DNA of 64,000 bases from assembly GCA_964016885.1 (NCBI GenBank), contig OZ024762.1:22506001-22570000 (forward strand), written 5' to 3'. This document shows, one piece after another, positions 2,802-55,995 of the stretch. Every line of letters starts with the position of its first letter. The stretch's first letter is position 1. Below the pieces are notes generated by a model. It saw only the letters and a list, made by a program, of their open reading frames with translations, did no database searches and was not told the origin of the DNA. The stretch is from Eledone cirrhosa. Its lineage: Eukaryota. A program made the position numbers and the translations under genes.

Positions 2802-3275
2802 TTATACTTCTCTTAGGTCAGTGTTGTTTGTTTGGGTGTTGTTGTTGTTCCACTCATTCTTTCTGTTTAGCTTTGGTCTTCTAATTTCTATTTCACTGGC
2901 CTCTCTGATTTGCCTATCTGCTGGGTCATTCCTATGTTTAGATATTATTCTAATTTCTATGTTGTCTATGTTACCGTCATGATGTTGTCTAGCATGTTCG
3001 TATAGTACTGACCCGTTTTTTCGTCCTTTTAGTTCCCCCCAGTGTTGGTCTATCCTTTCACCTATGCTACGAGCTGTCTCACCTATGTATGTTGTTGTCG
3101 TGTTTCTGCAAGTACCCTCTGTACATCTTATGCTATAGACTACGTTTCTAGTTTTACAGTTTATCCGGGGGTTCACCTTACATATGATACATTTCCTATT
3201 GGTACAGTGGGTTTTCTTAAAAGGGTAGGTTTTGCTGATCAGGGATTTTATGGTGGTTCCTGGCTTTTCTACCAC
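2802..3275 (-). pseudogene. GIY-YIG endonuclease domain of a Penelope-like element (5' truncated)
   Basis: CxxC...NCKTRNVVYSIRC...YIGETARSIGERIDQH...LYEH...RQIREASEI...PKLN. Confidence 0.9.
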
Positions 3276-3309
3276 CTTTATTTTTAATATATTATATATA
3301 TATATATAT

Positions 3310-3604
3310 GTAGGAGGTGAGTTTTATTGTAGTACAATAAAGCAATGCAGATATCGGATAAGAAGCACTCTACAGTCTGTAGGACTGGAATATACATAAT
3401 ATAATATATAAGAACAAAAGATGGTTGATTTAAAACTGCACTATGTTGATTTAAAACTGCACTATCCACAAGTGTTTTTTAACCTTCATATCATGTCTTC
3501 CTGTTTTATCTGATGAAAACACAAATATTATTGCATGATGATATTTGTTTTTGAAATGCGCATAATAAAATACATGGAACTCTTTTAACCATCTTTTGTT
3601 CTTA
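3310..3604. mobile_element. Family C element with one arm mostly deleted
   Basis: Inverted homologue of 55570-55998; keeps the tail, ~20 bp of one arm and one full arm. Confidence 0.9.
3502..3572 (+). ncRNA. Minimal hammerhead ribozyme (C)
   Basis: tgttttat CTGATGA aaacacaaatattatt-gcat-gatgatatttgttttt GAAA tgcgca TA ataaaata. Confidence 0.88.
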
Positions 3605-19276: not shown

Positions 19277-19336
<60 letters not shown>

Positions 19337-19339
<3 letters not shown>

Positions 19340-20202
19340 GTAAATATTCTATGGCGGTTGTCGTGAAGAGATTGCTGTCGTTTATTTATCTACTATTTCT
19401 TTATAGGTGCCTTTTAATCTTATAGCCTGGTCTAATTGATTTTTTGTGTGGTTAATTATGCTAATTGGGAGAGGAAATGGTGTATATATACTATCAAAGG
19501 ATTCTATGGACATACTTTATAGTATATTGCTCTGATTATTTAATTTATTAATCCATCATTGAGCCACAACGTGAATGGCTGCCAGAACATATATATCTGT
19601 GACTTTGTCTAATTTGTGTATATGTAAATCTTTATATTTAATAATCTCCCATAAGTTTGAGATGCAATTTGGGCAATATTGGGCTGCGCTTTCTAGCAAC
19701 CAGCCCACTCGCCGTAAGCAACCAATCACATTCTTTCTGACTTGACCACTGCCACGTCACAGTCTTTAGATATTTTGAATTCGTTTCTGGCGGAGATCAC
19801 TTAAGAAAGTCCTTTGTCCAAATGAGTTTGTTTCCTGATGAGTTGGAAGCTCGAGATTTTATCCTTAATCGGATATTTCGGAAAGCGAACGAAACCCTAG
19901 TGTAGAAACGTGATCCTGGTATGTGTATATGCATTTTTTCTTCTAATTTTAATTTTATACCTAATTGTGTATGGTTGACGGTATATTTAATCGATTTCCA
20001 CGTGCTATTGAAATGTTGGGTAAATATTCTATGGCGGTTGGTCGCGAAGAGATTGCTGTCGTTTATTTATCTACTATTTCTTCATAGGTGCCTTTTAATC
20101 TTATAGCCGGGTCTAATTGATTTTTTGTGTGGTTAATTATGCTAATTGGGAGAGGAAATGGAGTATATATATTATCAAATGATTCTATGGACATACTTTA
20201 TA
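19337..20202 (+). mobile_element. Terminally redundant element: 680-bp unit plus ~185-bp direct repeat, in (TA)n
   Basis: 19337-19521 repeats at 20017-20202; internal hammerhead. Confidence 0.88.
19830..19909 (+). ncRNA. Hammerhead ribozyme with extended stem II
   Basis: gtttc CTGATGA gtt...aac GAAA ccctagtg TA gaaac; perfect 5-bp stem I. Confidence 0.8.
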
Positions 20203-20229
20203 ATATATATATATATATATATATATAAA

Positions 20230-20420
20230 GGAACGAGTAGGACCCCGACGGCTGAGCTCAAGCCGTTTCGACGGCTAATTCAGTCCAGAATTAGCCGTCG
20301 AAACGGCTTGAGCTCAGCCGTCGGGGTCCTACTCGTTCCTATTACCCACTCTACTACCCTAAGTACTGAGTACTTTGGTGCGTTATGGTCCACCTGGTTC
20401 CTTACCACATTTCTTCCGTT
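20230..20420 (+). mobile_element. Family A foldback element
   Basis: Matches 1567-1783; no poly-A loop. Confidence 0.9.
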
Positions 20421-43544: not shown

Positions 43545-45482
43545 TATGAAAGTATTGAAGTTTGCTTGAAGCATTGTAGAATAATAAACATTTGGTCGTT
43601 TTGGAAGCCTCAACAAAGCAGATGGGTAAATCTCCGGGTAACAGAATCCGGTGGTGAAGAGAGAGATTTAAGAGGAAATGTATAATGAGACGTATAGTGT
43701 GTAGAGGAACGCAGGAAAGAGTGTAAAAATAATAACACGAGATAGAGTTACCTTGGGAGAGATTTAATTGTCCTTATATTTCGGATTTCGTATCCATCAA
43801 CTGGGGGTTTTCCCAGGGGAAAGTTTTTAGTCGGAGAGGAACGGTACGTGGCCTCTGTTGTCCGCCGTTTGTGTTCAACTCTACACACATATTCTGTAGA
43901 GCGCGCGTGCGCGGGGAATAGGTGCGGTGAAGCAAATGTCGAGGCAGTTCCTCGGAGTGGGATGGTGCATCACTGTCAATCCATTATACTACCTATATTC
44001 AGTCTTTGATACTGGCAATGTCGGTAGTCTGCCTGGTCGCTTGTTGGTCGGTGGATGGTGGGCACGCTATACACACCATAACAATCGTTCGAATGCCACT
44101 GTGTGTGTGTGTGTGTTGTTGTTTTGTTTGTTTACACCAGCCACATCATCTCCCCTCTCTCGGATCGGTTATTTATTTGTGGTCCTAGGCGTTTGATCCA
44201 AAGTGCTTCCTTGATTCTTAAAGTGCCGATGTTGCGTTCTGTCGCTAGCACTGTGGCAATGGGCCTTTCGTCTTTGTTTCCGCATTTGGTTATGTGTTTG
44301 CAGGAAGACGAGGCTCTGGTGTTGATGTGCTCCTTGATCCGGATATGTAGTGGCCGGATTGTGCTACCGATATAGTAGTGGTTGCACTTGTCACATTCTA
44401 CCCAGTATACAACGTATGTGCGTAAGCAACAGTTCGTTTGGCGCATCGGACAGTTGCTGAGGGAACACGCGTCAGCCAATTTCCCGGGTTTCCAGGAGAG
44501 GCATCTCCGTAGGGAGGGGCCCGAGTGGGCCAGGTGGATGTCGAGGCCCCCTCTCTCGGTATAGCCCTGCGGATAGCGTTGGTGGTTTTCTCGCTCAGGT
44601 TCGGGATTTTAAGGAAGCACTTGCTTTGGGTGTTTCTCTGCCTCTTGCGTCTAGTGTCTCTTACTCTGCTTGTAAGTGAGGCTGGGTATCCGTTCGTCTC
44701 CAGCACCCTGAGGAACCGCTTGGTGTGGGTGACACCACTCACGGGATCGCTGCATCTGTTTTTAAACCGCGTGATCTGGTTCGTGATGTACCCTCTTTTA
44801 GCACTGTTAGGGAGGGCATATTTGTAGTGGCTGAACAAGTCTTTGCAGGATGACTTGCGGTAGAAGCTGGTGTGGACCCCTCCCTGCTACGTGATGTTGA
44901 TTCGGAAGTCGAGGAGGGCAAGGGATCCATTGTCGTTGGGGTGTTCAACACTGAAGTCAATATTCTCGTCCGTGTTGCTGAACGTCTCGTTAATCCGGCT
45001 CGCCATCTCCTGGGAAGATGTGAGGATGGCGATGTCATCCATGTATCTTGAGAAGAAGACGACGGCGTTGGGGTGGCAGGTGTTGAGTACCTTGCGCTCG
45101 AGGCTGTCCATGTATGAGATCGCTAGCACAGCCGACAGGCTTGAGCCCATGGGCAGCCCCGAGGTCTGCCGGTATGTTTGGTCGAGAAAACCGAAATACG
45201 TGTTGTCAACGACGACGGATAGGAGTTGATGGAGGTCAGTGGGGGGTGAGCCCGAACCAGTGTAGGTCGGCAGATTGGACGCGTTCCATCAGTATATCAA
45301 CAGCCGGGAGCGCCGGGACCGAGGTGTAGAAAGCGACCACATCAAGGCTGAAGTCATACCTGTTAGCCTTCCTGGTGTCTGGATCCATTTGATGCAAGCG
45401 CTCCAACACCTTCTCGGAGCTGTTTACGTGTCCACGCAAGGTGTCTAGTATGGGTTCGAGTATTCTGGCTAGGAGCCATGAA
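43545..45482 (-). mobile_element. Penelope-like retroelement, 5' truncated, TA-flanked
   Basis: RT and GIY-YIG in one frameshifted reading frame, followed by ~590 nt of 3' region. Confidence 0.9.
44132..45482 (-). pseudogene. Penelope-type reverse transcriptase plus GIY-YIG endonuclease (frameshifted)
   Basis: FSLDVVAFYTSVP, GLPMGSSLSAVLAISYM, SRYMDDIAI, LALLDF, VVYWVECDKCNHYYIGSTIRPLHIRIKEH, LRIKEALWI...PQINNR. Confidence 0.92.
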
Positions 45483-45567
45483 ATTTGTATATATATATAT
45501 ATATGGCGTAGAAAAATGGCGTAGGATAGAAGAAAGGAAAGGCACAGAAACGAAGAAAGAAATCCCC

Positions 45568-54913: not shown

Positions 54914-55250
54914 AAAAAGGGATGAAATCGAAAATGCAACTGAAGTCTTATTTAAAAAAAAATATATATATATTTATTTGGTTCCTTTACCGGTTTCGCA
55001 GTTCTTCTGCTTTTCAAAAGGTGAGTTGAGATGGAGGGTCTGTGGTTTTCACAGACCCTCCATCTCAACTCACCTTTTGAAAAGCAGAAGAACTGCGAAA
55101 CCGGTAAAGGAACCAAATAAATATATATATTTATAAAAAAAAATAAGACTTCAGTTGCATTTTCGATTTCATCCCTTTTTCTTTATACTTCCACTCGTGT
55201 AGGACACCTCGGTTATTTTTCATTATGTAAAAAAAACCTCACTTTCTAAT
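54910..55250. mobile_element. Family E foldback element (~135-bp arms plus tail)
   Basis: Near-perfect inverted repeat around gtttt at 55045-55049. Confidence 0.93.
55073..55110 (+). ncRNA. 38-nt U3-A8 hammerhead (E); identical mirror on - at 54984-55021
   Basis: cctt TTGAAAA gcag-aagaa-ctgc GAAA ccgg TA aagg; stems I and II fully Watson-Crick. Confidence 0.85.
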
Positions 55251-55276
55251 ATATATATATATATATACATATATAT

Positions 55277-55544
55277 GTAGAAATGTAGAAGTTCTATTTA
55301 AATTGTTGGGATACAACAAGCAAATATTTTTATAACTGATATAAAACACTCAACAAAATTATCCGGGAGTTTCCACCAGACATGGTCGCATTCTTTAAGG
55401 GTATGTCAATATTTATTTATAAAACTGGTCTCTATTATATTATATCTGATGAAAGCACACCATAATTTAACTTGGTGTCCTTAAAATATGTATAATGAAA
55501 TAAATATGGTTTTATAAATATAGTTTCCATTTGTTAATATATCG
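55277..55544 (+). mobile_element. Family B1 element with mutated hammerhead (GAAA to AAAA at 55483)
   Basis: CTGATGA aagcacacca-loop-tggtgtcctt AAAA tatgta TA. Confidence 0.85.
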
Positions 55545-55569
<25 letters not shown>

Positions 55570-55577
<8 letters not shown>

Positions 55578-55995
55578 AGATCAAAAGATGGTTAAATGAG
55601 TTCCATGTATTTTATTATGCGCATTTCAAAAACAAATATCATCATGCAATAACATTTGTGTTTTCATCAGATAAAATAGGAGGACATGATATGAAGGTTA
55701 AAAAACACTTGTGGATAGTGCAGTTTTAAATCAACATATCATATGTTGATTTAAAACTGCACTATACACAAGTGTTTTTTAAGCTTCATATCATGTCTCC
55801 CTATTTTATCTGATGAGAACGCAGATATCATCCCATGATGATATTTGTTTTTGACATGCGCATAATAAAATATATGGAACTCATTTAACCATCTTTTGAT
55901 CTTATATATTATGTATACTCCAGTCCTACAAACTGTAGAGTGCTTCTTATCCGATATCTGCATTGCTTTATTGTACTACAATAAAACTCACCTCC

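Follow-up and report, generated by a model that had tools for sequence, protein, structure and literature searches.

An insertion in a TA microsatellite of Eledone cirrhosa is a decayed, 5′-truncated copy belonging to a non-coding family with a unit of 680 nt, which is scattered through TA microsatellites in hundreds to thousands of copies. It lies in a stretch of 64,000 nucleotides (assembly GCA_964016885.1, contig OZ024762.1, positions 22,506,001 to 22,570,000 of the forward strand), hereafter called the window, and positions are counted from the first letter of that stretch. On balance we favour the reading that the family is an animal non-LTR retrozyme, put into the microsatellite by a PLE reverse transcriptase and GIY-YIG nuclease that copied a predicted RNA circle. 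That it is a retroelement of the retrozyme type seems to us virtually certain, and that its helper was a PLE rather than a LINE very probable; that the template was a circle, and not an uncut multimer or the product of a template jump, is fairly likely. The ends of the copies appear to record both the start of copying and the cut made by the ribozyme.

The features of the window copy are collected in Table 1. The direct repeats that the initial annotation had put at about 185 bp, 680 bp apart, cover 19337-19527 and 20017-20208 with a period of 680 (96% identity over 192 columns, one 1-nt indel); about 186 nt of this is element and the remainder is TA. The TA runs described on both sides are indeed pure TA. 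Nor did a convincing reading frame emerge where none had been seen before, as no ORF inside the element exceeds 89 codons, and a six-frame translation gave no meaningful match to the PLE proteins of the same genome (best E 0.012). A tRNA search of the element found none, and it has no tRNA-related head of the kind seen in a tRNA-derived SINE. The GC content of the unit is 0.35. The CCAATCA and CCACGTCA motifs, which had been placed some 80-110 nt upstream of the hammerhead, lie close to that distance; they are listed as putative promoter elements, and a review, in the portion available, describes retrozymes as seemingly without promoters. Directly to the right of the insertion, at 20229-20419, is a very high-copy short element that opens with an inverted repeat of ~110 nt and finishes in TA; it recurs beside loci L008, L011, L025, L110 and L119.

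Table 1. Features of the insertion and its flanks. Unit positions are numbered from 19337 (unit 1).
Feature	Position in window	Strand	Remarks
Whole insertion	19337..20203	+	1.27 units of the 680-nt monomer; 5′-truncated at unit position 1; ends at the fixed 3′ end of the family
Left (TA)n target tract	19279..19337	.	pure TA
First of the two terminally redundant copies (unit 1-186)	19337..19522	+	its end, which this copy reads through, is where reverse transcription is presumed mainly to start
Second 3′-end site of the family (unit ~297-304)	19630..19640	+	used by 2/30 copies and many inverted arms
CCAATCA motif, putative promoter element	19722..19728	+	102-108 nt upstream of 19830; kept in subfamilies A and C, altered in B and D
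CCACGTCA motif, putative promoter element	19752..19759	+	71-78 nt upstream of 19830; unchanged in subfamilies A and B, altered in C and D
Type I hammerhead motif; long insert in stem II, stem III short and palindromic	19830..19909	+	read by eye from the sequence and by family comparison
Terminal copy of unit 1-186	20017..20203	+	reaches the fixed 3′ end and continues as (TA)n
Right (TA)n target tract	20199..20227	.	pure TA

The family was followed through 3.0 Gb of genome sequence. In a similarity search the best 40 of 4974 candidates yielded 62 matches, the full-length ones at 90-96%, and a second search gave 3260 first-look candidates of which 40 were scored. The exact 3′ end joined to a TA pattern has 396 matches genome-wide (control, 0), which disposes of a local one-off duplication, the outcome that would have undone the earlier reading, while the version in which this site continues into the next unit is matched exactly 167 times. 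Copies lie on many chromosomes and on both strands, and the average divergence of a segment from the column majority is 4.2% (238 segments from 129 loci). Besides the subfamily of the window copy, A, four sisters (B, C, D and E, with identities of 65-79%) were met by chance beside PLE loci; B and C have 2638 and 1706 search candidates respectively and together 1233 exact 3′ ends. Two or more hammerheads in head-to-tail units occur at L013, L026, L028 and other loci, and arrays of at least three units at L028 and L019. This genome-wide family bears out the initial description of a partial-tandem, non-autonomous unit of PLE or retrozyme type. At L028 (G000:C4:297235073-297237538) there are more than three units, the inner ones differing by 0.2-0.9% and the first, partial one by 3%, a pattern in the sequence that suggests a later local duplication. 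Seven hammerhead matches at near-regular steps of ~60 kb in G000:C12:17028724-17488098 likewise suggest a large tandem duplication carrying a copy.

The 3′ ends were mapped in 30 copies that an internal probe had picked out, among them the window copy and nine from the first search. In 27 of them the element ends at unit 186-191 in (TA)n; two end at the second site, ~115 nt away, and one is interrupted. Subfamilies B and C mostly share the orthologous 3′ end, though these sisters are only 65-72% identical, and have secondary ends of their own besides. The unit contains seven TA-like stretches, and two that are longer than the one used, at 147-155 and 253-260, are not the main end, which argues that the 3′ end is a chosen site and not mere microhomology. 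No shared fold was evident at the start sites. Lengths and 5′ ends in subfamily A were taken from 92 of the 396 exact ends, namely the first ones along the genome, where the distance from 5′ to 3′ end ranges from 27 to more than 1500 nt; dropping five rows (three internal jumps, one local rearrangement and one duplicate) and correcting two by hand left 87 copies. Their median length is 431 nt, with 28 reaching at least one unit and four exceeding 980 nt. An inverted 5′ arm is present in 15 of the 87 and in 28 of 88 B/C copies, and TA stands at the 5′ junction in 45 of the 68 non-inverted A copies. Internal jumps were seen at L182, L147 and L219. A genome search for different permutation points had been proposed; the 5′ end does vary from copy to copy, but the 3′ end is fixed. 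Since permutation is thus confined to the 5′ end, the length of the 185-bp repeat is incidental. A partial tandem with a fixed 3′ end in (TA)n, variable 5′ truncation and 5′ inversions is the anatomy of a PLE.

Repeats within one locus differ by 4.0% compared with 7.3% between loci, and share variants four to five times more often (2.1% versus 0.45%). Changes are divided evenly between the upstream and the terminal repeat (127/127 in 39 pairs) without a consistent direction. The likeness within loci together with this even split indicates that each insertion was made from one homogeneous template and then decayed neutrally.

The hammerhead consists of stem I (19830-19834/19905-19909), CTGATGA (19835-19841), stem II (19842-19846/19886-19890) enclosing a 39-nt insert, GAAA (19891-19894) and a short stem III (19894-19903), with the cut predicted after A19904 (19904/19905). 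Rfam did not detect it in the window, either at the gathering score or at E<=5, where the matches returned were of miRNA type, at chance level and none credible; nor did the window copy on its own fold into a hammerhead (z 0.07). The support for the motif comes therefore from the family. The circular fold has a z of -2.2 against 40 shuffles. In 18 copies from four subfamilies three of the five stem II pairs change on both sides, and stem II is 89% paired against 30-52% for slid partners, a score inflated by the relatedness of the sequences. Stems I and III were parsed by anchors in 164 motifs, the core being required by construction; the column alignment was unusable for counting them, as subfamily B is misaligned there. 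Variants of stems I and II mostly keep the pairing, and stem III differs between subfamilies in the same manner: in A it is ACCCTAGGGT in 11 of 48 and ACCCTAAGGGT in another 11 of 48, while ACCATGGT is found in 73/74 B and 17/18 C motifs. The commonest B and C variants each have one stem mismatch or bulge. As far as sequence comparison goes, the stems covary across subfamilies, and the hammerhead first proposed at this place is upheld, with its core and three stems. Conservation within subfamily A is no higher in the hammerhead than in the remaining unit (6.3% versus 2.9-5.7%). Its intact 3′ half has 99 exact matches genome-wide.

Stem III is too short to close alone and is predicted to work as a dimer, the palindromes giving -11 to -18 kcal/mol as homodimers and 0 to -2.9 as monomers. 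Dimer-dependent cutting is described for type I motifs with a weak stem III in the accessible part of PMC7761336. The window copy itself carries G at 19845 in stem II, where 108 of 114 family sequences have C, and T at 19901 in stem III, where 106 of 119 have G. Both changes are private to this copy and break their stems, and its dimer value falls to -3.6. It had been suggested that in a tandem array the hammerhead would release 680-nt monomers; for the window copy this does not hold up, since with a single hammerhead and two stem-breaking changes it can probably not release one and is likely a dead end. The copy is probably dead.

Other hammerheads were also noticed. A second type I family, with a palindromic TGCGCA stem III in short TA-flanked elements, is present in the window at 3506-3580 (+) and ~55200-55700 (-), the latter copy with a 5′ inverted arm, and also at L087, L108, L111 and L132. 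At L110 (~5865, both strands) and L119 (~901, -) are TA-flanked type I hammerheads with stem II inserts of ~60 nt, their sequence unrelated to the 680-nt family. The PLE family at L085, L086, L091, L106, L115, L124, L125 and L136 has a minimal hammerhead with a palindromic AGTACT stem III, ~380 nt after the ORF.

If cut linear RNA were an occasional template, some copies would be expected to start at the cut, and 5′ ends were compared with the expectation from a constant stop rate. In subfamily A ten 5′ ends fall at -2 to +16 from the cut (unit 567-585) against 2.6 expected (P 4e-4), with none in the 19 nt upstream of this window; the width of the window was picked after viewing the A data, and P is 0.023 after scanning all windows. 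The TA-rich interval at unit 131-149, made up of short copies, is equally strong (14 versus 4.25). With the window fixed beforehand, 90 B/C copies (from the first 92 of the 1233 listed, two pairs sharing a stretch) gave eight 5′ ends against 2.26 expected (P 0.0024), and four against 0.68 within 3 nt of the cut; these ends were mapped on references only 79-98% alike, and the upstream window was not empty (3 versus 1.98). The predicted cut is crossed by 53 of the 87 A copies and 44 of the 90 B/C copies, that is by most of the longer ones, and the junction there is seamless. The usual template was evidently joined at this point, as either a circle or an uncut multimer.

The genome holds 10,595 GIY-YIG candidates. 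Searches with blastn and nhmmer of 76 GIY-YIG stretches, from 67 distinct places among them, found no PLE pseudo-LTR or 3′ UTR homologous to the unit, and alignments of the unit with the 3′ ends of four PLE families were no better than those with shuffles; with no homologous end in the 67 sampled places, we do not claim descent from a PLE pseudo-LTR. A possible helper is the L092-type PLE family (1877 candidates), which codes for RVT_1 together with a C-terminal GIY-YIG and has a TA target, 5′ truncation, inverted arms (11/30) and an optional tail (12/30). At L357 (G000:C1:145567300-145572500) we find in succession TA, an inverted 127 nt of B, a truncated L092-type PLE, shuffled A fragments, 1.2 A units and TA, with TA tracts at the two outer sides only and none at the inner junctions. 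One integration with template jumps could explain this locus, a nested insertion followed by deletion being the alternative; it is the one chimera among ~180 anchored loci, which were screened in part. The choice of the L092-type PLE as candidate helper is based on the shared anatomy and on L357.

Several other candidates for such a link were discarded. The apparent PLE pseudo-LTR matching the unit at L069/L081 is sister subfamily B in the TA tail of a PLE that has its own, different terminal repeat. L092, L208 and L182 are not chimeras with the helper, as TA runs or other DNA separate the parts, and a short likeness between the helper 3′ end and the second 3′ end consists of AT-rich sequence and does not exceed shuffles when the whole end is compared. 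Within the window a decayed PLE reverse transcriptase/GIY-YIG region lies at 44159-45487 (-), 54-55% identical to the L092 protein, and a GIY-YIG-like fragment, seen by eye and without a Pfam match, at ~2900-3290 (-).

The course of events that we propose would begin with transcription of a multi-unit source locus. Two hammerheads would pair through their palindromic stem III and cut, giving unit-length RNA of which a part would be ligated into circles. The PLE protein would nick (TA)n, and reverse transcription would begin at the fixed internal site at unit 186-191 or sometimes at ~300. On a circle, copying would pass the ribozyme junction and stop at random after 0.04 to more than 2 units; on a cut linear RNA it would run off at the cut. 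The other DNA end may then prime a second, inverted arm. A PLE protein of an anole was shown to cleave both strands of AT-rich DNA and to begin copying internally, at two sites (PMC11167929), in agreement with the two 3′ ends and inverted arms seen here. A fuller version, which we put forward tentatively and at somewhat less than even chances, is of an old retrozyme lineage whose PLE pseudo-LTR parent has not survived, which keeps a PLE start signal of its own, has an L092-type helper, and whose copies record both circles and cut linear RNA.

The nearest alternative keeps the element and the PLE helper and changes the template: linear, uncut multi-unit transcripts would be copied, tandems would arise by template jumps, and the hammerhead would cut a minority of transcripts, with circles taking no part in copying. 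We consider this rather unlikely. Uncut RNA was the main substrate of the anole PLE in vitro, with no reads at the cut (PMC11167929). A dimer-dependent stem III would cut slowly, the internal jumps at L357 and the three loci given above are of the required kind, the arrays of at least three units are possible sources, and reading through the cut fits uncut multimers equally well. Set against this, multi-unit loci are rare (the four of 87 beyond 980 nt), copying would only shorten arrays unless jumps restored them, the cut junction is seamless in read-through copies, and other animal retrozymes are reported to accumulate as circles in the accessible text of PMC7229834.

Changing the helper instead, to a microsatellite-targeting LINE with the family as its SINE-like passenger, gives a reading that we regard as highly improbable. 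Truncation and inversion at the 5′ end are marks of LINE-type priming too and would suit it, as does the lack of homology to a PLE among the 76 GIY-YIG stretches, but the 3′ end is internal to a tandem unit, the 167 exact internal matches read through it, there are two alternative 3′ ends and no tRNA head, and at L357 the family is joined to a PLE. Direct repeats at both ends could also come from a TRIM-like small LTR element, or from a local tandem duplication or satellite fragment, and the window copy happens to begin with TG. The T of this TG belongs to the TA run, however, the length of the repeat varies, and fixed LTR ends of the TG...CA kind or a target-site duplication of fixed length are absent among the family copies, so that it fails as an LTR retrozyme or TRIM; the spread of 5′ ends and the dispersal over chromosomes and strands refute this reading, to which we attach a negligible probability.

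The way in which animal retrozymes move is called an open question in the parts of the literature available, and an earlier PLE study saw no in vivo trace of hammerhead cutting (PMC11167929). In the present family the start site is fixed, a helper can be proposed, the footprint at the cut can be measured and intact multi-unit copies exist, and with these the circle model becomes testable with a defined RNA and protein. If the reading with two templates, circle and cut linear RNA, is true, the copies would be direct genomic evidence of rolling-circle target-primed copying and of germ-line hammerhead cutting.

A search of the literature found no description of the 680-nt family or of such a mapping of ends, and the family may already bear a repeat-library name; the portion of PMC13282606 available makes no mention of a ribozyme. 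With plant LTR retrozymes it shares the ~700 nt between ribozymes and the terminal redundancy, but its hammerhead is of type I and not type III, it lacks LTR ends and a fixed 4-bp TSD, and its GC content is low. Going by the accessible parts of PMC8557442 and PMC11167929, EN+ PLEs and their non-autonomous partners such as MRC1 resemble it in their pseudo-LTR partial tandems, inverted 5′-truncated arms, (TA)n preference, alternative 3′ ends and hammerhead. It differs from them in having no ORF and no 3′-end similarity that we could find to an autonomous family, in alternative ends ~115 nt apart rather than 30-40, and in a full three-stem hammerhead rather than a minimal one. Closest are the animal non-LTR retrozymes, which in the available text of PMC7229834, PMC7761336 and 10.64898/2026.07.22.740005 likewise have a non-coding tandem unit of low GC (35% here) with one type I hammerhead per unit, a weak stem III fit for dimers, monomers as well as multimers in dispersed positions, and coexistence with PLEs. 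Their RNA is documented there; the present family is described from genome sequence. Their units are typically 170-400 nt (reported range 51-972) compared with 680 nt here, and 24 of 57 Xenopus retrozyme families match known elements, mostly PLEs, whereas no PLE pseudo-LTR among the 76 stretches compared matches this one. It is set apart from the descriptions in those same portions by the 39-nt stem II insert, by its strict targeting of (TA)n, by a 3′ end fixed inside the unit and by the 5′ inversions. By its type I hammerhead, tandem units, lack of coding sequence and of LTR ends, low GC and dispersal beside PLEs the family is nonetheless, on sequence criteria, an animal non-LTR retrozyme, a member of a class already known but with an unusually clear mechanistic footprint.
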